A stretch of 64,000 nucleotides of DNA. Source: Candidatus Woesearchaeota archaeon. Lineage in GTDB: Archaea; Nanobdellota; Nanobdellia; UBA10117; ARS21. Both the position numbers and the translations under genes were made by a program. The notes beneath the pieces were generated by a model. It saw only the letters and a list, made by a program, of their open reading frames with translations. It was not told where the DNA came from and searched no databases. The stretch covers positions 5,604-69,603 of the forward strand of contig JAYPKL010000002.1 in assembly GCA_038128845.1 (NCBI GenBank). Reading direction: 5' to 3'. This document shows, one piece after another, positions 14,644-49,256 of this stretch. Position 1 is the first letter of the stretch, and the number at the start of each line of letters is the position of its first letter.

Positions 14644-15882
14644 ATGGCCAATCCTTTTGATCAAGCAAAGAAGCAAATCTCTTCTGCATCTAAATTATTA
14701 AAATTAGATTCAGAAACTACTGCTAAATTAATGATTCCAGATAATTTTCATTCATTCTGGGTCAGAATAAGACTTGATAATGGACGAAGAGCAAGATTTA
14801 GAGGTTTTAGATCTCAATATAATAATGCATTAGGCCCTTACAAAGGAGGAATTAGATTCCATCCTGAAGAAACTGCAGACACTGTACTTGCTCTATCTGC
14901 ATGGATGACTTGGAAATGTTCTCTTGCCGGAATACCTTATGGTGGCGGAAAAGGCGGAATTATTTGTAATCCCAAAGAATTATCTAAATCAGAACTTGAA
15001 AGACTTTCAAAAGAATATTCAAGAAAAATTTCAAAATTTATTGGAGTAGATCGAGATATACCTGCTCCTGACGTTTACACAAATCCTCAAATAATGTCTT
15101 GGATGTTAGAAGCTTATGAACAAAAAATGAATATTTCTTCTCCAGTAACTTTTACAGTAAAACCAATTGAACTTGGTGGTCATACGGTATGAATTGAATC
15201 GACCGGTTTAGGTGTGGCAATAAATGTTAGAGAAGCTGCCAAAAAATTAAAATTAAATATGAAATCAACAAAAGTTGTAATTCAAGGATTTGGTAATGTA
15301 GGTCAATATGCTGCCAAACATCTTGACAAAATGGGCGCAAAAATAATTGCAATATCGGATTCATCGGGAGGACTTTATGATTCTAAAGGAATTGATGTCT
15401 CTAAATTAATCAAATATAAACAAGAAGGAAATTCACTAATTAAATACAAAAACTATTCAAAAATAGATAATGAAAAATTACTTACACTAAAATGTGATGT
15501 TTTAATTCCATCTGCATTAGAAAATGCAATTGACAAATATAACGCGGATAAAATCGACACAAAAATAATTGTTGAAGGAGCAAACGGACCAATAACAACG
15601 GATGCAGATAAAATTCTTTTTGAAAAAAGTATTATTGTAGTTCCAGATATTCTTGCAAATTCGGGCGGAGTCGTTGGAAGTTATTTTGAATGGCTAATGA
15701 ATCGTTCAGGAGAAAGTTGGGAATTAAAAACCTATAACGCAAAATTAGATAAAATGTTAACAGATTCTTTTTCAAGAGTTTATAAAAAATACAACGAACT
15801 AAAAAATATTGACATGAGAAAAACAAGTTATATGATTGCAATAGAGAGAGTTGTAAAAGCAATGGAGCTTAGAGGAAGATGA
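14644..15882 (+). pseudogene. gdhA: Glutamate dehydrogenase interrupted by an in-frame TGA (15190-15192)
   Basis: One continuous frame encodes the GDH dimerisation domain (KGGIRFHPEETAD, GIPYGGGKGGI) and the NAD(P)-binding domain (GFGNVGQYAAKHL). The TGA sits where the conserved Arg of GGSxGRxEATGxGV is expected (ELGGHTV*IESTGLGV). The downstream half has only a GTG at 15214. Confidence 0.6.
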
Positions 15883-16781: not shown

Positions 16782-16978
16782 AGAATTATTTAATTATAGG
16801 TTATGGTATTTTAATTGCTGCAATATTATTTAATTTAGTTTTATCAAAGTTAGGTATTTCTTCTTGGTATGATTTTTTATTAGGTAATAAAGATAAATAT
16901 ACCTCTTATGTTGTTTTATTTATTGTATATCCGTTAATTTTAGGTTATGTTGCTCAAAAAGCTATTGAATTAATTTAA
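16775..16978 (+). CDS. Small membrane protein (67 aa)
   Basis: Two predicted TM helices. No assignable motif. Confidence 0.3.
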   Translation: MVKNYLIIGYGILIAAILFNLVLSKLGISSWYDFLLGNKDKYTSYVVLFIVYPLILGYVAQKAIELI

Positions 16979-18304
16979 ATTTTCTTCAATATACTTTTTG
17001 ATATCAAATTTTGATTTACAACCATTATAAGACATAAATCTTATTTTTCCAAAAACCGGTCTTTCAAACCATGCCCGATCATGAAGGCCTCCTATGGACC
17101 AAGCACATCCTACGTAACCATTGGGATCTCTTCCATCCAATTCATATTTATCATTTAGATAAATTGCAATCTTTAACGCATCTTTAGGCGATTTGGTCCA
17201 TTCAAGAATTTTTTTAGCCCAATACATTCTCATATATCCGTGCATTTTTCCTTTGTTTACCATTTCCATTTGTGCAGCATTCCATAAATCGTCGTGTGTC
17301 TTTGCATTTTCAAATTGTTTTAATGAATAAATATATTCTCGTTTATCTTTTGTATGTTCATTATGAGATTTTTTAGCCCAATCTGGAAATCCATCAAATG
17401 TGTCGTACTTTTCATTATAATAACAATAATTATCTGAAAGTTCTCTTCTTACAAATGCTTCTTCAATAAATGCATCTTTATCTGGTTTTTTTGCATTTGC
17501 TTTACTTACTTCGTAGACTGCTCTTTGGGGGGCCAACATTCCATAATGAAAATAAGGGCTTAAATGAGAAACTTGATTTAAAGGAGGATTATTTCTATTT
17601 GTTGAATATCCGTCTAAACGATTTTTGATGAATTCTTTTAGCATATTCATTCCTTCATCTTCTCCGGATTTTATCCAATCAACTGGTTTTACATTTTTGT
17701 CAACATTTGCTTTCATTAAATTTTCAAAATTATTTTTGTTTTTTAATTTGTTATAATTATTTTTCTTTAGTTTTGGAAAATCAGAAATATATTCGGGAAA
17801 TAGTCTATTTAATTTTGGTCTTATTGTATATGCTGCAAATTCTTGTTTTGGAGAAGTGATCCATACTGGTACTATATTATGAGCATCTACTTGAATAAAA
17901 GGAATTTTTAATTTTAAATTTAAATCATTGACCCATTTTTTTGCAATTCTAAGTGGTGAAAAATCAGTTACAACTAAACCAACATTATTTGTTTTTATGA
18001 ATTTAGAAATATCTGGAACAAAAGATTTTGTTAAAATAAAAAGAGGTATATTTAATTTTTCTAAATTAGTTTCTAGTACTTTTAATCCTTCTAACTTGAA
18101 CTTATGTTGTCTTAATCCTCCTCCGAGATATCCTATATCTAAATTATATACAACATATAATGGAACTTTGTTTTTTTCAGCAAGATCTGATGCATGCAAT
18201 AATGCCCAATTGTCTTGAGATCTTATTTCTCTATTACACCAATAAAGTATGGCTCCGGAACTATATTCTAAATCGTTTAATTTTCTAATTCTGTTTTCGT
18301 TCAT
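16970..18304 (-). CDS. phr: Deoxyribodipyrimidine photolyase, class II
   Basis: 444 aa. N-terminal region matches class II CPD photolyase (LYWCNREIRSQDNWALLHA), C-terminal FAD-binding region (GYMRMYWAKKILEW, GGLHDRAW). Confidence 0.7.
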   Translation of the reverse strand: MNENRIRKLNDLEYSSGAILYWCNREIRSQDNWALLHASDLAEKNKVPLYVVYNLDIGYLGGGLRQHKFKLEGLKVLETNLEKLNIPLFILTKSFVPDISKFIKTNNVGLVVTDFSPLRIAKKWVNDLNLKLKIPFIQVDAHNIVPVWITSPKQEFAAYTIRPKLNRLFPEYISDFPKLKKNNYNKLKNKNNFENLMKANVDKNVKPVDWIKSGEDEGMNMLKEFIKNRLDGYSTNRNNPPLNQVSHLSPYFHYGMLAPQRAVYEVSKANAKKPDKDAFIEEAFVRRELSDNYCYYNEKYDTFDGFPDWAKKSHNEHTKDKREYIYSLKQFENAKTHDDLWNAAQMEMVNKGKMHGYMRMYWAKKILEWTKSPKDALKIAIYLNDKYELDGRDPNGYVGCAWSIGGLHDRAWFERPVFGKIRFMSYNGCKSKFDIKKYIEENLN

Positions 18305-18921
18305 TTTAATAAGTATAAATCAATGAAACCGAATACTGCTTTTGAAAAAATTGGAAGTATTACAAAAAGAACATTGAAAGTTTCTAGAGATATAAAATTT
18401 AGCGGATACAAAATGAATACAAGAGGATATGCTAACCACTGAATTGTGAAATATTTTAATAAAAAATCATATTTCTTTTTGTTAACTGCCAGTTTGTAAA
18501 GATCTACCCAGATTATTTTTATAATTATTGCAAGTAAAAATAGACCTAAGTAAAAATATCTTAAGTCTGAAAAAACATCGGCAAATAATCCGGTTAATAT
18601 CACAATAGGTTGTAGAATTAATAGAGATAACATAAGAGTATAATTTCCTTTTTTATTTAGAATCGCTGTAAAGTAAAGTGCCATTAAAAGTAGTGGAGTT
18701 GAAACTACCCAATCAAAATATCTTGCAAGATCAGAAATTTCTGTTTGATAAGCAATAAATAAATACATCAAACCAGACCAACCTACAATTGTTGAATGTA
18801 AAAGTATGAAGTGTTTTGGAATTTTCCATTTTTTACCTAAATATAGAAATGAGGCTAGTGAAGTAAACATTACTAATGAGTAAAACATTTCGGCATTCAT
18901 AAAATATTTGTAGTTAATCAT
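18301..18921 (-). CDS. Microbial (type-1) rhodopsin-like 7TM protein, unusually short (206 aa)
   Basis: Seven hydrophobic helices. Helix C motif RYFDWVVSTPLLLMAL (compare bacteriorhodopsin RYADWLFTTPLLLLDL). Helix F motif WLAYPLVF (BR WSAYPVVW). Helix G motif PIFSKAVFGF (BR DVSAKVGFG) containing the Schiff-base lysine. Confidence 0.55.
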   Translation of the reverse strand: MINYKYFMNAEMFYSLVMFTSLASFLYLGKKWKIPKHFILLHSTIVGWSGLMYLFIAYQTEISDLARYFDWVVSTPLLLMALYFTAILNKKGNYTLMLSLLILQPIVILTGLFADVFSDLRYFYLGLFLLAIIIKIIWVDLYKLAVNKKKYDFLLKYFTIQWLAYPLVFILYPLNFISLETFNVLFVILPIFSKAVFGFIDLYLLK

Positions 18922-18946
18922 TTATAAGATTAATTAGATAAATTCT

Positions 18947-20344
18947 ATGGAAATATCTGTTATTCTTCCGGATCAAATAAATAAAAATAATCCTGTGCTT
19001 AAATTAAAAAATAAAATAATTATTCTTGAAGATAAAAGATATTTTGATGATTATAAATATAACAAAAAGAAATTAATTTTTCATCGAGCTTCTATGAAAT
19101 ATTTTTATGAATATCTGAAAAAGAGCGGACATAAAGTAGAATACAGCGAAAATAGTTTAGAAGATTATACTAAAGAAAAAATACATTTAATGGACCCAGT
19201 TAACAAAAAAATAACAAATAAATTCAAAAATTTAACAATATATGATAACGTAAATTTTCTTAATACTACAAAATACAATAAAGAATATTTTTCTAAAAAT
19301 AAATTTTTTATGGCAAGTTTTTATAAAGATCAAAGAAAAAAATACAAATTACTTTTGACATCTTCAGGAGGACCTGAGGGAGGAAAATGGAGTTATGATG
19401 ATCAGAATAGAAAAAAATTACCAAAATCAGAAAAAGTTCCAGATTTTAGAAAATTTAATAGTGAATATGTTAAAGAAGCAATTTCTTATGTTAATAAAAA
19501 ATATAAAAACAATTATGGAACTTCTGAAAATTTTTTTTATCCTACAACACACGAAGAAGCATCAAAATGGTTTGATGAATTCTTAAAAATTAGATTTGAA
19601 AAATTTGGACCTTATGAAGATGCAATATCTGATAAAGAATTTTTAATTTATCATTCTCTTTTGAGTCCTTTATTGAATGTAGGCCTAATTGATGTAAATT
19701 ATGTTTTAGATAAAGCAATTCAAGTACAAAAAAAACAAAAAATACCTATTAATTCTGTTGAAGGTTTTATTAGACAAATAATTGGTTGGAGAGAATTTAT
19801 ACGAGCAGTTTATGTTGAACTTTCTGAAAAACAAATAAACAATTTTTGGAAATTTAAAAATAAAATTAAAGAAAATTTTTGGAATGGAGAAACAAATATT
19901 TTACCTGTAGATAATGCAATAAAAAAAGCAATAGATTATGCATATAATCATCATATTGAAAGATTGATGGTTTTAGGAAATTATATGCTAATTACTGAAA
20001 AGAATCCGGATGAAGTTTATAATTGGTTTATGACAATGTATATTGATGCGTATGAATGGGTAATGGTTCCGAATGTTTATGGCATGAGTCAATATGCTGA
20101 CGGAGGATTAATTACTACCAAACCTTATCTTTCCGGTTCAAATTATATTCGTAAAATGTCTGATTACAAAAAAGAAGCTTGGTGCGATATTTTTGACGCA
20201 CTTTATTGGAGATTTAATATTAAATATGAAAAAGTTATTTCGAAGAATGCAAGATTATCTATTGTTGGAGCATTACTTAGAAAAATGAGTGATGAAAAGA
20301 AAAAAGGATACATTAAAATAGCTGAAAATCATATTAATAAATAA
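18947..20344 (+). CDS. Photolyase/cryptochrome-related protein (COG3046-like)
   Basis: 465 aa. C-terminal half reads HHIERLMVLGNYMLI...WFMTMYIDAYEWVMVPNVYGMSQYADGG, resembling the FAD-binding helical domain of the photolyase/cryptochrome family. Divergently arranged relative to the rhodopsin and photolyase genes. Confidence 0.5.
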   Translation: MEISVILPDQINKNNPVLKLKNKIIILEDKRYFDDYKYNKKKLIFHRASMKYFYEYLKKSGHKVEYSENSLEDYTKEKIHLMDPVNKKITNKFKNLTIYDNVNFLNTTKYNKEYFSKNKFFMASFYKDQRKKYKLLLTSSGGPEGGKWSYDDQNRKKLPKSEKVPDFRKFNSEYVKEAISYVNKKYKNNYGTSENFFYPTTHEEASKWFDEFLKIRFEKFGPYEDAISDKEFLIYHSLLSPLLNVGLIDVNYVLDKAIQVQKKQKIPINSVEGFIRQIIGWREFIRAVYVELSEKQINNFWKFKNKIKENFWNGETNILPVDNAIKKAIDYAYNHHIERLMVLGNYMLITEKNPDEVYNWFMTMYIDAYEWVMVPNVYGMSQYADGGLITTKPYLSGSNYIRKMSDYKKEAWCDIFDALYWRFNIKYEKVISKNARLSIVGALLRKMSDEKKKGYIKIAENHINK

Positions 20345-20345
20345 G

Positions 20346-20738
20346 ATGATTGAAGCAATGATTAACTTTATGGGTTATTTTTTGGTAATTGTTGCTATTT
20401 TGAAAATAATAGATTGGAAAAAATTTTCGGAAAATTTTTCAAAATATGACTTAATTGCAAAAAGAAGTCAAGCTTACTCTTTTTCTTATCCAATTATTGA
20501 ATTGGCAATCGGAATAAGTTTTTTGAATAATTTTTATGTTAGAGAAGTTGCAATTATTTTAGCAGCAATTATGTTTATTGGAGTAACTGGAGTTTTGAAG
20601 GCATTAAAGGAAAATAAAAAAGTTCAGTGTGCATGTTTAGGAAAATTAGGGCATAAATTAAACATCAAATTAACACAATTTACTTTATTTGAAGATATAG
20701 TTATGGGACTTATGGCCTTAGCAATTTTATTACTTTAA
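20346..20738 (+). CDS. Small integral membrane protein (DoxX/MauE-like, tentative)
   Basis: 130 aa, 4 TM helices, CAC motif in a loop (VQCACLGK). Confidence 0.3.
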   Translation: MIEAMINFMGYFLVIVAILKIIDWKKFSENFSKYDLIAKRSQAYSFSYPIIELAIGISFLNNFYVREVAIILAAIMFIGVTGVLKALKENKKVQCACLGKLGHKLNIKLTQFTLFEDIVMGLMALAILLL

Positions 20739-21127
20739 TTAACTTCTTTTAATCTCATTAAAGCAATTTCTGCAGATTCTGCCATTTCAATTTCAGGATC
20801 ATTTAGATATTTTTCTACAAAAGGAATGTATTCTTTTTTTCCAAGAGTTGCAAGAGCCAATATTGCTTCATGTCTAACAAAAATATTTGTGTCATTTTCT
20901 ACGGCTTTTATTAATGCTGGACCTGCAATTTCATTCCAAGCAGTTTCGCCAAGAGAAAATGCAAATTCATGTCTAACTATTGGTGAGGGATCGGTTTCAA
21001 GAGCTTTGCATAGTTTTAGAATATCGTCTTTATTTGTAGAATTTTCTAACTTAAATGCTGCTTGAATTCTTTCTTCTTTTGATTTAGTTAAGTCTAGTAC
21101 AATATCTGCTGGATGCATAAATTTCAA
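20735..21127 (-). CDS. HEAT-repeat protein (PBS-lyase HEAT-like repeats)
   Basis: 130 aa with repeated ...VRHE(A/F)A..LG... units (IVRHEFAFSLGE, FVRHEAILALATLG). Confidence 0.5.
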   Translation of the reverse strand: MKFMHPADIVLDLTKSKEERIQAAFKLENSTNKDDILKLCKALETDPSPIVRHEFAFSLGETAWNEIAGPALIKAVENDTNIFVRHEAILALATLGKKEYIPFVEKYLNDPEIEMAESAEIALMRLKEVN

Positions 21128-38478: not shown

Positions 38479-39690
38479 CTAAGTTAAAGAAATTTGTCTA
38501 TATTCTTTTTTTATAAAATAACTTGTCATTAATGTTACCGCTAACGTTGTTATTGGAACTGCAGGAGCAAATATATCAAATGTATCGTAATTAGAAAAAA
38601 TACCTAAATTTATGGCAGCTAAAATAATAATAAGACTTTCTACATCTAAACTAAGCATTGAGGATGCTATAGTTCCAGGTGCTTTTAATGAAAAATTCTT
38701 TGATAGTATGTATGTAACTACAAATTTAGTAAATATACTAGCAAAAATAAATAAAATTGCAATAGAAAGATATTCATAAATTAAAATTAGATTAAGATTA
38801 AGTCCAAACCAAACAAAAAATAATGGAATAAAAAAACCATTTGATATAGCTTCAATTTTATTTGTGTATAATTTTTTCTTAGCAAAATTTGATTTAGATA
38901 TAACTATTCCTGCTATGAATGCACCAATAATAACTGATAAACCAATTAATTCTGAAAGAAATGCTAATAAAAATAGTAAAATAAAAGTTAATGTAATTTG
39001 AGATTCTTCTCTTGTTGAAGATTTAAACTTATTAATCTTATCTGTAATTTTATTTATTGATATAATAAAATAATAGATTAATATTACAAATATTGTAGAA
39101 AAAATTAATTTAAATATTAACTCGGATGAACTTTGATTTAAGAAAACTGATGCTGCAGATAAAATTAATAATCCAATTAATATGTTAGACATTGACATAT
39201 TTATGAAAGATTGAGCAAATCTTTTTGAAAGTAATTTTTTGGATGATAATAATTTCAAAGGAACAAATATATCTACTACAGAATATGCTAATGCTAGAAA
39301 TAAAGATTGTTGAAAGTTAAAAAATAAATTAAATACATATAACATAACTGCAAATGTTGATAATAAAACTATAACTCCAATTGCTAAGCTTTTGCTATCT
39401 TTAAGATCAAATTTATCTGTTTTTTTATTGATGCCTGCTGTAAATAAAATTAAAATACTACCTATTATTGCAAAGGGTTCTATTAATTCGGGATTTACAA
39501 AATTTAATAAAGATCCTCCAAGTATTATTCCCGCGGTAATCTGACCAATAAGTTCATTTATTCCTATTCTTTCAAATAATTCTCCTAAAAAAATGTATAA
39601 AATAAATATTGAAAAAAATGCCAATAATAAATTGTCAGTCTGACCTAAATTAAGTCCATATTTTGTTAGCAAAGATATATTTTCGTTCAT
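38479..39690 (-). CDS. Monovalent cation:proton antiporter (Na+/H+ exchanger family)
   Basis: 403 aa, about 11-12 TM helices with CPA-like layout. Confidence 0.6.
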   Translation of the reverse strand: MNENISLLTKYGLNLGQTDNLLLAFFSIFILYIFLGELFERIGINELIGQITAGIILGGSLLNFVNPELIEPFAIIGSILILFTAGINKKTDKFDLKDSKSLAIGVIVLLSTFAVMLYVFNLFFNFQQSLFLALAYSVVDIFVPLKLLSSKKLLSKRFAQSFINMSMSNILIGLLILSAASVFLNQSSSELIFKLIFSTIFVILIYYFIISINKITDKINKFKSSTREESQITLTFILLFLLAFLSELIGLSVIIGAFIAGIVISKSNFAKKKLYTNKIEAISNGFFIPLFFVWFGLNLNLILIYEYLSIAILFIFASIFTKFVVTYILSKNFSLKAPGTIASSMLSLDVESLIIILAAINLGIFSNYDTFDIFAPAVPITTLAVTLMTSYFIKKEYRQISLT

Positions 39691-45438: not shown

Positions 45439-48400
45439 ATGGAAGAATATACTGAACAGAGAGAGATTACTAACGGACTGGTTATTGACAGAAAATTTAC
45501 AAAAGAAGATGTATCTGCATATGATATGTTTAATTATGATTTGAGAAGTTCAGTTATACGTAATCCTGATGGATCGGTAGTTTTTGAAATGAATAATGTT
45601 GAGGTTCCATCTTTTTACTCGCAAATTGCGACAGATATTCTTGCACAAAAATATTTTAGAAAAAGGGGAGTTCCTACAACTGATGAAAATGGAAATCCCG
45701 TATTAGGATCAGAAAATAGTATAAAACAAGTTGTAAATAGAATGGTCGGATGCTGGACAAATTGGGGTAAGGAATACAATTATTTTAATTCTACAAAAGA
45801 TGCAAAAGCGTTCTACGAAGAAATGTCATATATGATGTTGAATCAAATGGCAGTTCCTAATTCTCCGCAATGGTTTAATACAGGATTATATTGGGCATAT
45901 AACATAGAAGGTAAACCTCAAGGACATTCTTTTGTTAATCCTAAGACAAGTGAATTAGAATATTCAAGAAATGCATATGAAAGACCTCAACCTCATGCGT
46001 GTTTTATATTATCCGTTAAAGATGACTTAGTAAATAAAGGCGGAATTTTTGATTTAGTAACAAGAGAAGCTAGAATTTTCAAATATGGTTCAGGAGTTGG
46101 AACAAACTTCTCTACAATTAGAGGAAAAGGTGAACAACTTTCTGGAGGCGGTACCTCGTCTGGTTTAATGTCTTTCTTAAAAATAAATGATGCTGCAGCG
46201 GGTGCAGTTAAATCCGGTGGTACTACTAGAAGAGCAGCTAAAATGGTTTGTTTAGACATTGATCACCCTGAAATTGAAGAATTCATAAAATGGAAAAGTG
46301 AAGAAGAAAATAAAGTAGCAAGCTTAGTATCTGGTAATGAATCTTGTAAATTACATGTAAATAATATTCTAAAATGTGCGGTTTCTGGTGGAGTAGATTT
46401 ACAAAATAATATTGAATTAAGAGATAGTATCCGTGATGCAAATAATGCTAATGTTCCTGTTCAAATGATTGTAAGGGCTATTGAATTGGCAAAACAAGGA
46501 ATAGCTAAATTTGATTTTAAAAAATTAGATACTTATTATGAAGGTGAAGCTTATGGAACTGTTTCTGGTCAAAACAGTAATAACTCTGTAAGAGTAAGTA
46601 ATGAATTCTTTAAATCTTTAACAAATAATGAAAACTTTAACTTAACTAATCGGACTAATGGAGAAGTTTTCAAAACGGTATCTGCAGACAAATTATGGAA
46701 TGATATAGCAATGAGTGCGTGGATTAGTGCAGATCCAGGTCTACAATACGATACAACAATTAATGAATGGCACACTTGTCCATCTAGTGGTAGAATTAAT
46801 GCAAGTAATCCTTGTTCAGAATATATGTTTTTAGATGATACTGCCTGTAATTTGGCAAGTATAAATCTAGTTAAATTTTACGATGAATCAACAGGTACAT
46901 TTGATATAGAAAGATATAAGCATGCAGTAAAATTATGGACAATAACCTTAGAAATTTCTGTATTGATGGCACAATTTCCTAGTGAATCTGTTGCACAAAG
47001 AAGTTATGATTTTAGAACATTGGGTCTAGGTTACGCGAATTTAGGTTCTCTTTTAATGAAAATGGCTTTACCCTATGATTCAGAAAAAGGTAGAGCTATT
47101 GCAGGTGCATTAACATCAATTATGTGCGGAGAGTCTTATGCAACATCTGCAAAAATGGCTCAAGTTCATGGAGCCTTTGCAAGATATGAAGAAAATAAAG
47201 ATCATATGCTAAGAGTTATTAGAAATCATAGACGTGCAGCATATAATGCAACAAAAGAATCTTATGAAGGATTAACAGTTTTACCAATGGGATTAGATCA
47301 AGATCTTGTTCCAAAAGATATGCTATCTGCAGCACATCAATCTTGGGATAATGCATTGGAATTAGGACAAAAATTTGGATATAGAAATGCTCAAACTACG
47401 GTTATTGCTCCAACAGGTACAATTGCATTAATTATGGATTGTGATACAACGGGTATAGAGCCGGATTTTGCTACAGTTAAATTCAAAAAATTAGCAGGAG
47501 GCGGTTATTTTAAGATTGTAAATAATTCAATAAAACCTGCATTGATTAAATTGGGTTACTCTGAAGAAGAAATAAGATCAATAGAAAAATATTGTGTAGG
47601 TCATGGATCTATTAGAGACGCACCTTATATTAATTTTGAATCATTGAGGTCCAAGGGTTTTGGAGATGAACAATTAAATGCTCTAGAATCAAATGCAAAA
47701 GGCGCATTTGAAATTAAATTTATCTTTAATAAATTTGTACTTGGTGAAGATTTCTGTAAATCTTTAGGTTTTTCTGATGAAAAAATGAATGATCCGAGTT
47801 TTAATATGCTAAAAGAATTGGGTTATTCCAGCTCAGAAATAGCTGCAGCAGATGAATACTTGTGTGGAACAATGACACTTGAAGGTGCACCTCATCTTAA
47901 AGGAGAACATTACAAGATATTTGATTGTGCAAATAAGTGTGGTAAAAAAGGTACAAGATATATACATCACGATGGACATATTAAAATGATGGCAGCAGCA
48001 CAACCTTTTATTTCTGGAGCAATCAGTAAAACAATTAACATGCCAAAAGAAACAACCATAGAAGAAATTAAATCAGCATATTTTGATAGTTGGAAATATA
48101 TGGTTAAGGCAGTAGCTCTATACCGAGATGAAAGTAAACTAAGTCAACCTTTGTCAACTTCGTCAGGAATTAGTGGAGAATTAGACACAATATTTAATGA
48201 AGATAAAAAAACAGTTACTCTAACAAATGAACCAATTGTTCAAGAATTGGTTGAAAATATTGCTCATCACAAAGTAGGTCCTCAGGATCTTTATATACAT
48301 AGTTATAATAATCCTTCAGGTAATTTAGCAAAAATTAAACTTGTTATGCCTAAAACAACCCCAAGTAATCAAGAATTATTAGACTTTGTTGGAACAACAA

Positions 48401-48714
48401 TAAGTTTTGCCTTGATGAGAGGGTATTCCACTAGAGATATATTGGATGAATGTTTTGCTGAGTGGAGAGATCATCCTATTTTGAGAAAAATAGAATCTGT
48501 ACTTAAAGGAGAACAAGAAAATAAAGTAATTCAGACTAAATTGGGTTCAACAGCGGATCAAAATATAACAATTGAAGAACCTGAAGAAGAAGATGCTATA
48601 AAGGCAATGGGCTATACGGGAGCAAAATGTAATGATTGTGGTGCAAGTATGATGCGACAAAATGGAGCATGCTTATTGTGTGATGTTTGTGGTGCAACTA
48701 CTGGTTGTTCATAA
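45439..48714 (+). CDS. nrdJ: Ribonucleotide reductase, class II (adenosylcobalamin-dependent)
   Basis: 1091 aa. Ten-stranded barrel region with active-site stretch [20 protein letters not shown] and C-terminal Zn-ribbon tail [22 protein letters not shown], typical of monomeric class II RNR. Confidence 0.85.
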   Translation: [1091 protein letters not shown]

Positions 48715-48716
48715 TT

Positions 48717-49256
48717 ATGTCAATTTCAACTAAGACTGGAGATTCTGGAAATACATCCTTGTTTGATGGTAGTAGAATAGGTAAAAATTCTACAAGTATT
48801 GAATCGGTTGGCACTTGTGATGAATTAAATTCTTTATTAGGTATAATTCAATCAAAGTATAAATTAGATAAATTAACTATACTTCAAAATGAATTATTTG
48901 TTGTTGGATCAGATATAGCAACACCTATGAACACAATTCATGAAGATAGAACAAAAAGAATAAAGCAAAGACACTTAGAACGAATTGAATCTGAAATATT
49001 AAATCTTGAAAATAAAATGGGTCCAATAACTAATTTTGTACTTCCTGGTGGACATAGCATTTCTGCAAAATTACAATATGCACGTACAATTTGTAGAAAA
49101 TTAGAAAGAAATGTAGTAAATCTTAGTCTAGAAAGGGATATTAATAAGATTTTAATCAAATATATAAATAGATTATCGGATTACATATTTTTGTTAGCAT
49201 TAGATATAAACAATGAATTTGGAGTTAAATCTGAGGATGTTAATTTTGAAATTTAA
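48717..49256 (+). CDS. PduO-type ATP:cob(I)alamin adenosyltransferase
   Basis: MSISTKTGDSGNTSLFDGSRIGKNSTSIESVGTCDELNS matches the PduO N-terminal signature (TGDxGxTSL ... DELNS). ATG at 48717 lies immediately after the nrdJ stop. Confidence 0.75.
   Translation: MSISTKTGDSGNTSLFDGSRIGKNSTSIESVGTCDELNSLLGIIQSKYKLDKLTILQNELFVVGSDIATPMNTIHEDRTKRIKQRHLERIESEILNLENKMGPITNFVLPGGHSISAKLQYARTICRKLERNVVNLSLERDINKILIKYINRLSDYIFLLALDINNEFGVKSEDVNFEI

Follow-up and report, generated by a model that had tools for sequence, protein, structure and literature searches.

The stretch of DNA that we analysed (64 kb; hereafter the window) belongs to a marine Woesearchaeota-like DPANN archaeon of 27% GC and carries a gene for a type-1 rhodopsin of the xenorhodopsin (XeR) family with a photolyase-family gene on either side (Table 1). 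Directly downstream of the rhodopsin, on the same strand, lies a class II CPD photolyase gene, whose product matches PDB 2XRY (deposited as deoxyribodipyrimidine photolyase) with E = 6e-147. The two reading frames are joined by an ATGA at 18301-18304, in which the rhodopsin stop codon TGA overlaps the photolyase ATG. The divergent gene on the other side encodes a (6-4)-photolyase-like protein that matches PhrB (PDB 4DJA; E = 9e-69) and PDB 7YKN, deposited as '6-4 photolyase (FeS-BCP, CryPro)' (E = 9e-67). In the short region between the divergent genes, the palindrome TTATAA is possibly a shared archaeal TATA element, a putative assignment made from its sequence. A neighbouring glutamate dehydrogenase gene is split in the window.

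Table 1. Genes, intergenic region and key rhodopsin codons in the window (positions counted from its first letter).
Feature	Position	Strand	Evidence
Class II CPD photolyase gene, directly downstream of the rhodopsin	16970..18304	minus	NCBIfam TIGR00591 phr2, 610 bits (cut-off 550)
Xenorhodopsin-family type-1 rhodopsin gene	18301..18921	minus	ORF, ATG start, 206 aa
D201, helix G cytoplasmic Asp (NsXeR D220, ASR D217, BcXeR D214)	18319..18321	minus	Alignment; PoXeR D216 by literature
K194, retinal Schiff-base lysine (BR K216, NsXeR K213)	18340..18342	minus	Invariant in 39-sequence alignment A1; inside model helix 7
P190 at BR D212 position (NsXeR P209, ASR P206, BcXeR P203)	18352..18354	minus	Alignment
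A81, non-carboxylate at BR D96 donor position (NsXeR A87, BcXeR A84)	18679..18681	minus	Alignment
D70, single carboxylate beside the Schiff base (BR D85, NsXeR D76)	18712..18714	minus	Invariant in alignment A1
R67, Arg at BR R82 position (likewise in ASR and BcXeR; NsXeR W73)	18721..18723	minus	Alignment
H42, equivalent to NsXeR H48; Ala in ASR and BcXeR	18796..18798	minus	Alignment
25-nt AT-rich stretch between the divergent genes, with a palindromic TTATAA next to the rhodopsin ATG	18922..18946		Sequence
FeS-BCP/CryPro-type (6-4)-photolyase-like gene, divergent	18947..20344	plus	Pfam PF04244 DPRP, E = 7e-42

Reading frame, fold and key residues

An in-frame TAA directly abuts the ATG of the rhodopsin reading frame on its 5' side, so a longer N-terminus is impossible. 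M8 (codon 18898-18900) or M12 could be the true start, in which case the protein would be shorter, not longer (199 aa from M8). The chain is short beside the solved structures of NsXeR (232 residues), BcXeR (229) and ASR (261), and the loops in the model comprise only 2-7 residues. Uncharacterised XeR-like relatives measure 185-209 aa; the short length is therefore real, yet not unique.

The Pfam profile Bac_rhodopsin (PF01036) recognises the protein at a level well beyond chance (E = 2.6e-27; 96 bits, the cut-off being 24.6). None of the NCBIfam models matches it. The AF2 model has seven helices and is very confident (pLDDT 94.7, pTM 0.90); it places K194 midway along helix 7 (residues 179-205). 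The family motifs read R67-Y-F-D70-W71-V-V-S74-T75-P76-LLL-M-A81-L in helix C, W162-L-A-Y165-P166 in helix F and L-P190-I-F-S193-K194-A-V-F-G-F-I-D201 in helix G. Residue equivalences were taken from an alignment with BR, NsXeR, BcXeR and ASR, which reproduces the published correspondences of BR T46 with NsXeR H48, of D96 with A87 (PMC13093656) and of D212 with P209. All of the hallmark residues (H42, R67, D70, S74, A81, P190, K194 and D201) are found in the rhodopsin, giving a motif RDSAPK where NsXeR has WDSAPK, and P190 is kept in all five orthologues described below. D201 lies seven residues past K194, and the chain ends five residues beyond it. The retinal pocket is kept (W71, T75, L78, G111, W162, Y165 and P166), with F123 at the position of BR W138, where other XeRs have Tyr, and F169 at that of BR W189, where they have Trp. 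The loops predicted to face the cytoplasm are rich in Lys and Arg and the outer ones in Asp and Glu, a distribution in the model that fits a type-1 orientation with the N-terminus outside.

These results bear out most of a preliminary description made from the sequence. Reading frame, profile and model agree with its account of a 206-aa type-1 rhodopsin with motifs in helices C, F and G; the fold is that of a rhodopsin with the lysine on helix 7, and the profile search assigns the protein to the rhodopsins, not to another 7TM family. The alignment likewise upholds Ala as the equivalent of BR Asp96 and Pro rather than Asp four residues before the Lys. No alternative upstream start had been seen, which the in-frame TAA confirms, and the divergent gene lies exactly 25 nt away, as described. 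One point needs amending. The helix G motif had been spelled SxKxxFGF; the lysine motif is present, but S193 and K194 are adjacent, so that it reads SKxxFGF. The protein had also been called unusually short with very short loops, and both statements stand, with the relatives of 185-209 aa as company in size.

Conservation and distribution of the locus

Orthologous loci were compared at five sites, comprising the window and the loci L001, L043, L048 and L049. The rhodopsin is exactly 206 aa long in every one, and dN/dS is 0.03-0.06 in nine of the ten pairwise comparisons (0.13 in the closest pair), with dS of about 1.3-1.7 among the loci; purifying selection on the gene is strong. The ATGA overlap of rhodopsin stop and photolyase start is likewise present at all five, as is an AATTAAT-N-TTATAA block in the intergenic region. 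The divergent (6-4)-photolyase-like gene stands 25 nt upstream of the rhodopsin at four loci, L043 having merely a 5' remnant of it. At four other sampled XeR-like loci (L041, L042, L044 and L046) we found no adjacent photolyase, and a general linkage between XeRs and photolyases was rejected on these grounds. The photolyase operon, found in five of five loci, is what sets this rhodopsin apart from ordinary XeR members.

The clade is rare: a single cluster at 50% identity, out of 1.84 billion representatives, accounts for it, and the next relative is 41% identical. Relatives include Woesearchaeota RS366 (PBPJ01) and the contigs Ga0255784_10004373 and Ga0163110_10001436. An exact-sequence lookup of the protein returned no record, and a scan of GTDB at one genome for each species found no close relative of the rhodopsin. 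In IMG/VR, scanned with the family alignment, the only matches were giant-virus-type rhodopsins at a distant 26-28%, none of them a close viral XeR; a PHROGs scan of the virus-like contig that carries a short homologue (P0043) returned essentially nothing. We also considered recent horizontal transfer of the gene, for which composition gives no support: its GC content (26.4%) is close to that of the window (27.3%), and hence there is no compositional sign of such an event. Searches of the accessible literature turned up no report of XeRs in marine Woesearchaeota-like DPANN archaea.

Placement in the xenorhodopsin family

Xenorhodopsins are diagnosed by Pro at the BR D212 position together with a non-carboxylate at the BR D96 position (Ugalde et al., 2011; PMC3198991). 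The rhodopsin has both, in addition to the seven-helix fold with its helix G Lys, the Asp at the D85 position and, in D201, a helix G cytoplasmic carboxylate. With respect to the NsXeR-type subgroup, the His at the BR Thr46 position is present (H42), and the replacement of BR Arg82 by a non-Arg residue, Trp or Phe, is absent (R67). The top sequence matches in the PDB are NsXeR (6EYU; E = 7e-25), ASR (3e-22) and BcXeR (1e-21), which score 81-92 bits; the next best match scores 47 bits, and BR 26 bits. When the AF2 model was searched with Foldseek, the top 15 matches were all XeRs or ASR (TM 0.86-0.90). Phylogenetic placement, proposed in the preliminary description, was carried out with an NJ tree, in which the XeR/ASR clade including the rhodopsin has a bootstrap of 90 against BR-like outgroups; within the clade the rhodopsin joins a His-bearing NsXeR-like branch with a bootstrap of 26, a weak placement. 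We regard membership in the XeR/ASR clade as highly probable. At 31-36% identity to any characterised XeR, the rhodopsin is a compact, divergent branch of an already named family.

The earlier suggestion of a sensory or uncharacterised clade holds in its first half, since ASR belongs to the same clade and the sensory resemblance is real, but not in its second, the residue pattern being diagnostic of xenorhodopsins. The accompanying view that the pattern is not that of an outward proton, chloride or sodium pump proved sound, with D212 replaced by Pro and no NDQ, NTQ or TSA motif. The two carboxylate counterions that characterise BR, PR and DTG outward pumps are thus not both present. Assignment as a heliorhodopsin or a schizorhodopsin was rejected on the basis of topology, motifs and weak scores, with P190 and the weak match to SzR4 further opposing the second. 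As to an ASR-type photosensor, there is no ASRT among the scanned ORFs and no cytoplasmic C-terminal extension. Schizorhodopsins (e.g. SzR4, PDB 7E4G) are compact like the rhodopsin (about 200-210 aa) and pump protons inward, but SzR4 is only distantly related by sequence (E = 1.2e-4); the likeness is one of convergent function in another family.

Comparison with characterised xenorhodopsins

NsXeR is the best sequence match among solved structures (31% identity, TMq 0.87). Residues common to the two (NsXeR/rhodopsin) are D76/D70, S80/S74, A87/A81, P209/P190, K213/K194 and the pair H48-D220/H42-D201, and both proteins have DPANN hosts and a short B-C loop. They differ at R67, Q104 and F197, which are W73, E111 and Y216 in NsXeR. 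Deletions in the E-F and F-G loops and the lack of a C-terminal tail leave the rhodopsin 26 residues short of the 6EYU chain (232 residues), and neither H94 nor E228, the surface release pair of NsXeR, is matched, because the chain stops five residues after D201. The host is marine with 27% GC, whereas NsXeR is from a hypersaline setting. In structure the closest match is BcXeR, an inward proton pump from the bacterium Bacillus coahuilensis (PDB 7ZMY and related entries), with TMq 0.89-0.90 and 34-36% identity. Its core R-D-S-A-P-K and helix G Asp are identical in the rhodopsin; it differs in having Ala38 for H42 and S211 for G198, longer B-C and E-F loops and a bacterial host. Anabaena sensory rhodopsin (ASR, PDB 1XIO; E = 3e-22, TMq 0.88), which is regarded as a photochromic sensor and not a pump, has the same fold and shares Pro at BR D212, Arg at BR R82 and the helix G Asp (D217/D201), but lacks the His (A40 against H42) and has Ser at BR D96, where the rhodopsin has A81. 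ASR has in addition a C-terminal extension (261 aa) and a co-encoded ASRT transducer (PMC3198991); the rhodopsin has no such extension, and no ASRT turned up among the scanned ORFs of the window. The neighbourhoods also differ, in that the gene is linked here to a photolyase while nanohaloarchaeal XeR genes adjoin a Na+/H+ antiporter (PMC3198991).

Predicted function and mechanism

Clade membership leaves the function unfixed, because ASR, a fellow member that shares the Pro and the Asp, is taken to be a sensor and not a pump. The XeR residue pattern, the best matches to NsXeR, BcXeR and ASR and the H42/D201 pair nevertheless make light-driven inward proton pumping, from the outside to the cytoplasm, the most likely function, and we consider it probable. 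Counting against it are the two altered pocket aromatics (F123 and F169), the missing equivalents of H94/E228, the weak placement within the clade, the low identity to characterised XeRs and the lack of retinal-synthesis genes among the scanned ORFs. Inward pumping is common to PoXeR, NsXeR, RmXeR, BcXeR and GhXeR (PMC13585137), and the family members assayed to date, with the exception of ASR, are light-driven inward proton pumps (PMC5609834, PMC13585137).

A mechanism may be transferred from NsXeR, BcXeR and PoXeR. All-trans retinal would be bound to K194 as a protonated Schiff base with D70 as the only carboxylate nearby, because P190 stands in for the second BR counterion, D212; the Pro at this position is described as crucial for pumping (PMC5609834). 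Following photoisomerisation, the Schiff-base proton would leave towards the cytoplasmic side through a water chain to H42/D201 and from there to the cytoplasm, with no BR-type proton donor since A81 occupies the D96 position. The pairing of H42 with D201 is predicted by homology with H48-D220 in NsXeR, a putative acceptor pair in which H48 is the proposed primary cytoplasmic proton acceptor (PMC5609834, PMC13093656) and where pumping is lost in the D220N mutant (PMC5609834). PoXeR D216 and ASR D217E serve as acceptors, and pumping by BcXeR rose 1.7-fold once His was introduced at the H48-equivalent position (PMC13093656). After re-isomerisation the Schiff base would be reprotonated through D70 from the extracellular side, a donor role putatively assigned to D76 in NsXeR (PMC5609834). 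The rhodopsin would be expressed in one operon with the class II CPD photolyase, as part of a small 'light island' in the genome of this archaeon.

A role as a light sensor or regulatory partner, either ASR-like or as a TfHeR-like modulator of the co-translated class II photolyase and perhaps of the (6-4)-like neighbour too, appears unlikely to us. Gene order favours it, in that the stop-start overlap has persisted at all five loci despite the high dS and a second photolyase-family gene lies in close divergent orientation at four, but the linkage may just be co-regulation of light-related genes, and the four XeR-like loci without a photolyase show that it is not a family trait. Ugalde et al. 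speculated on a link between XeRs and DNA repair in low-GC, high-light organisms (PMC3198991), a description with which the GC content here agrees. The closest precedent is TfHeR, a heliorhodopsin of Trichococcus flocculiformis whose gene likewise shares an operon with that of a class II CPD photolyase; TfHeR binds this enzyme through basic loop residues (Kd 21.7 uM) and increases repair about 3-fold (PMC9769723). The cytoplasmic loops of our rhodopsin are Lys-rich, but at 4-7 residues and with no C-terminal tail they offer scant docking surface. As TfHeR belongs to a separate family with inverted topology, the precedent is only an analogy, and the photolyase interaction, shown by experiment there, is hypothetical here. 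Among the approximately 55 ORFs of the window scanned with Pfam or NCBIfam (some 22 others, mostly recognisable housekeeping genes, lay outside the scan), neither an ASRT or Htr transducer nor a second rhodopsin turned up, and conservation of the pump-type H42/D201 pair further argues for inward pumping over a sensory role.

Two further readings are very improbable. The first takes the protein for a relic, decaying or chromophore-less, that serves no light function. The reduced genomes of DPANN archaea, the reduced size of the protein, the split neighbouring gene and the absence of carotenoid- or retinal-synthesis genes among the scanned ORFs of the 64-kb window could be read in this way; however, the low dN/dS, the unchanged length, the Schiff-base Lys with its whole retinal pocket and the confident model all point to a maintained protein, the gene survey covered 64 kb of the genome only, and retinal can be obtained by scavenging. 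The second, an outward proton pump or else a chloride or sodium pump that resembles XeRs, would be in keeping with D70 and R67, retained as in outward pumps, and with the DTG/DTS rhodopsins, which are reported to pump outward with no D96-type donor (PMC8927995), but the XeR hallmark Pro, the missing ion-pump motifs, the much weaker matches to the DTG rhodopsin 7W74 (E = 1.8e-8) and BR (9e-5) than to NsXeR and the nesting within the XeR/ASR clade all oppose it.

Discussion

The locus extends the range of XeRs to marine Woesearchaeota-like DPANN archaea. Its rhodopsin clade is among the smallest XeR scaffolds with the full NsXeR-type His/Asp pair, and is of interest for optogenetic tools. Should the linkage to the photolyase reflect co-regulation only, the rhodopsin would simply add one more ordinary member to a family already known.

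What natural inward proton pumps do for the cell was still called an open question in 2026 (PMC13585137). A more speculative reading, to which we give little credence at present, is that, in this marine DPANN lineage, the minimal XeR (199-206 aa) and the class II CPD photolyase work together as one unit coupled in translation, with the (6-4)-photolyase-like gene at its flank, acting either through direct binding and activation, as in TfHeR, or through a light-dependent local acidification of the cytoplasm or voltage change that aids photorepair. The conserved sharing of an operon with photolyases, in a genome of 27% GC, makes the 2011 speculation on XeRs, UV and DNA repair experimentally tractable. 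Were the coupled unit real, an inward proton pump would for the first time be assigned a physiological role, that of protecting a genome which is extremely AT-rich and UV-sensitive.

Identification of the window protein as a xenorhodopsin

The rhodopsin ORF begins at an ATG directly preceded by an in-frame TAA, and 25 nt separate it from the start of its divergent neighbour. The N-terminus therefore cannot be longer, in agreement with the preliminary description, which had seen no upstream start; translation might alternatively begin at Met8 or Met12. All of the motifs listed in that description were found in the sequence and alignment: R67-Y-F-D70-W71-VV-S74-T75-P76-LLL-M-A81 in helix C, W162-xx-Y165-P166 in helix F and P190-I-F-S193-K194-AVFGF-I-D201 in helix G. 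Only the spacing of the last needed correction (SKxxFGF, not SxKxxFGF), and the remaining description of the rhodopsin was accurate.

The Pfam Bac_rhodopsin profile matches residues 14–205 (E = 2.6e-27). An AlphaFold2 model calculated from a 39-sequence alignment (mean pLDDT 94.7, pTM 0.90) contains seven helices (10–31, 36–57, 63–87, 94–117, 120–140, 148–171 and 179–205) joined by loops of just 2–7 residues, with K194 in the middle of helix 7. The position of this lysine and the profile family were the two points on which the preliminary identification had been staked, and neither refutes it. The predicted cytoplasmic side is rich in basic residues and the outer side in acidic ones, which fits the usual type-1 orientation.

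When the protein was compared with all PDB sequences, the best match was Nanosalina xenorhodopsin (NsXeR, 6EYU; E 7e-25, 92 bits), followed by Anabaena sensory rhodopsin (ASR; E 3e-22, 83 bits) and Bacillus coahuilensis xenorhodopsin (BcXeR; E 1e-21, 81 bits). The next match scored 47 bits, and bacteriorhodopsin (BR) and schizorhodopsin 4 scored 26 bits each. The top 15 Foldseek matches of the model in the PDB are all BcXeR, NsXeR or ASR (TMq 0.86–0.90, 31–36% identity), with other rhodopsins scoring lower. In a neighbour-joining tree of 46 sequences, a clade of NsXeR, BcXeR, ASR and the window protein separates from BR-like outgroups with bootstrap 90. Within it, one further homologue (P0010) clusters with the window protein and the Tara relatives (bootstrap 100), the placement of this cluster in the clade being weak (bootstrap 26). 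Every xenorhodopsin (XeR)/ASR-clade feature that can be tested from sequence or structure is present; the sole trait lacking is the non-Arg residue at BR R82 typical of the NsXeR subgroup. The window protein is a compact, divergent xenorhodopsin, an addition to an already known family.

Four more orthologous loci (L001, L043, L048 and L049) occur in marine metagenomes, one of the assemblies being from Tara Oceans. Each encodes a rhodopsin of exactly 206 aa, and pairwise dN/dS is 0.03–0.06 in nine of ten comparisons, even with dS ~1.3–1.7 (0.13 for the closest pair). Compactness is thus a conserved property under selection, and the claim of an unusually short protein holds for all five loci. 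The constant length and low dN/dS rule out an assembly or annotation artefact.

Active-site residues and proposed function

Equivalent residues were numbered on a BR sequence whose numbering reproduces the literature equivalences BR T46 = NsXeR H48, D96 = A87 and D212 = P209.

Aligned residues of the window protein and reference rhodopsins
Window protein	BR	NsXeR	BcXeR	ASR
H42	T46	H48	A38	A40
R67	R82	W73	R70	R72
D70	D85	D76	D73	D75
S74	T89	S80	S77	T79
A81	D96	A87	A84	S86
P190	D212	P209	P203	P206
K194	K216	K213	K207	K210
D201	L223	D220	D214	D217

Ugalde et al. defined xenorhodopsins by their clade, a missing D96-type donor and a universal Pro at the D212 position (PMC3198991). What had looked anomalous is thus the standard signature of an established family. 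The preliminary description rightly set the protein apart from classical pumps and pointed to relatives regarded as sensors, but missed its xenorhodopsin identity. In P0010, the closest outgroup (~48–55% identity; 158-kb archaeal contig, 42% GC), the D212 position is Ser, and several other short XeR-like homologues align Ala or Ser there; the wider XeR-like radiation thus includes members that lack the 'universal' Pro. A frameshift, probably a fault of sequencing or assembly, interrupts the P0010 ORF (~193 aa once reconstructed).

The NsXeR motif is WDSAPK (Shevchenko et al., PMC5609834). The window protein has RDSAPK, sharing its Arg with ASR and BcXeR and its His-Asp pair with NsXeR. In NsXeR, P209 is crucial for pumping, D220N abolishes it, and H48-D220 was proposed as the cytoplasmic acceptor (PMC5609834). 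Later FTIR work retains His48 as a candidate primary acceptor, and adding the His to BcXeR (A38H) raises pumping 1.7-fold (PMC13093656). The retinal pocket is conserved save two conservative aromatic changes, F123 at BR W138 (Tyr in other XeRs) and F169 at BR W189 (Trp in other XeRs).

By homology, retinal on K194 would form a protonated Schiff base whose sole counterion is D70. After isomerisation, the proton would exit towards the cytoplasm via water and H42/D201, and re-isomerisation would be followed by reprotonation from outside through D70. Overall, protons would most likely be moved into the cell, as they are by PoXeR, NsXeR, RmXeR, BcXeR and GhXeR. The main caveat is ASR, a member of the same clade with the same Pro and Asp that is nevertheless regarded as a sensor.

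Host, distribution and gene content

Features of the window and of related loci
Feature	Coordinates	Strand	Product or length
Split glutamate dehydrogenase, first ORF	14644–15192	+	182 aa
Split glutamate dehydrogenase, second ORF	15214–15882	+	222 aa
phr2	16970..18304	-	class II CPD photolyase
ATGA junction	18301–18304		rhodopsin stop/phr2 start
Rhodopsin	18301..18921	-	ATG start, 206 aa
Divergent intergenic region	18922–18946		25 nt
(6-4)-photolyase-like gene	18947..20344	+	
MauE-family membrane and small HEAT/PBS-lyase-like repeat proteins	20346–21127		130 aa each
CPA2-family monovalent cation:proton antiporter	38479–39690	-	
B12-dependent class II ribonucleotide reductase	45439–48714	+	1091 aa
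Cobalamin adenosyltransferase	48687–49256		
P0010 rhodopsin	L042:6001–6580		
Deletion site	L043:2040–2148		
P0043 rhodopsin	L046:5001–5585, L047:5001–5585		194 aa

Among the genes of the window are archaeal ones for information processing (aIF2-gamma, proteasome, exosome, L7Ae, L15e and RNase P subunits). The aIF2-gamma shares 83% identity with its counterpart in the MAG Candidatus Woesearchaeota archaeon RS366, further matches at 50–57% being mainly Woesearchaeota or Nanoarchaeia MAGs, and the RS366 MAG is collinear with the window (79.5% nucleotide identity across 3.2 kb). The host can therefore be placed among marine, Woesearchaeota-like DPANN archaea. The GC content of the rhodopsin gene (26.4%; window 27.3%) agrees with that of the genome.

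Searched exhaustively with HMMER, 1.84 billion cluster representatives yielded 24 with E < 1e-10. Only one, the protein's own cluster (P0001), exceeds 50% identity, and the next-closest relative has 41%. Several of these relatives are likewise short (185–209 aa), and compactness therefore recurs among uncharacterised XeR-like lineages. No report of xenorhodopsins tied to Woesearchaeota, Nanoarchaeota or Pacearchaeota was found in the literature searched. The XeR-like P0043 (32% identity) lies on 46–49 kb JGI contigs crowded with small ORFs without Pfam matches; a PHROG scan of ten ORFs from one contig gave essentially no matches. These contigs may come from a virus or mobile element with a mini-rhodopsin, or from a DPANN-like genome that lacks annotation.

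Neither an ASRT or Htr transducer nor carotenoid or retinal-synthesis genes were detected among ~55 window ORFs scanned (the ~22 left out are mostly recognisable housekeeping genes), and the window holds no second rhodopsin. Nanohaloarchaeal XeR genes directly adjoin a Na+/H+ antiporter (PMC3198991), whereas the antiporter here lies ~20 kb from the rhodopsin. The two glutamate dehydrogenase ORFs match the N- and C-terminal halves of archaeal GdhA, the L001 orthologue being unbroken (412 aa); the split points either to a pseudogene or to misassembly. Family matches to the ribonucleotide reductase, which precedes the cobalamin adenosyltransferase gene, fall in two to five separate stretches; together with a weak YebC/PmpR-like match at residues 307–376, this suggests an internal insertion.

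Conserved linkage to photolyase genes

The rhodopsin stop overlaps the start of the next same-strand gene, a class II CPD photolyase (NCBIfam phr2, 610 bits, cut-off 550; PDB 2XRY, E = 6e-147). The divergent gene 25 nt upstream is FeS-BCP/CryPro-type (6-4)-photolyase-like (PDB 4DJA PhrB, E = 9e-69). The ATGA junction is kept in all five loci and the divergent gene in four, the exception being L043. There the (6-4)-photolyase-like and HEAT-repeat genes are gone, and the first ~30 nt of the former remain upstream of the rhodopsin, indicating a secondary, lineage-specific deletion. The HEAT-repeat gene, which like the MauE-family gene adjoins the light-gene cluster, is present in L048 and was not detected in L049 or L043. 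No photolyase was found near the other sampled XeR-like loci (0/4; L041, L042, L044 and L046), and the linkage is therefore specific to the window-protein clade.

A palindromic TTATAA lies directly against the rhodopsin ATG, within an AATTAAT-N-TTATAA block kept in all five intergenic regions. Its spacing, ~20 nt to the (6-4)-photolyase-like ATG and ~22 nt to the rhodopsin M8 codon, suggests that a single candidate archaeal TATA element might drive two leaderless mRNAs; the true rhodopsin start might then be M8 (199 aa).

The photolyase linkage is the only unexpected element of the locus, and co-regulation of light-related genes is its simpler reading. A functional partnership is a minority hypothesis that we consider improbable. 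Two publications are relevant to the linkage: a heliorhodopsin encoded together with a class II photolyase binds that enzyme and enhances repair (PMC9769723), and Ugalde et al. speculated that XeRs are tied to DNA repair in low-GC, high-light organisms (PMC3198991). The interest of the window rhodopsin lies mainly in its conserved photolyase operon and in a minimal scaffold that carries the His/Asp pair.
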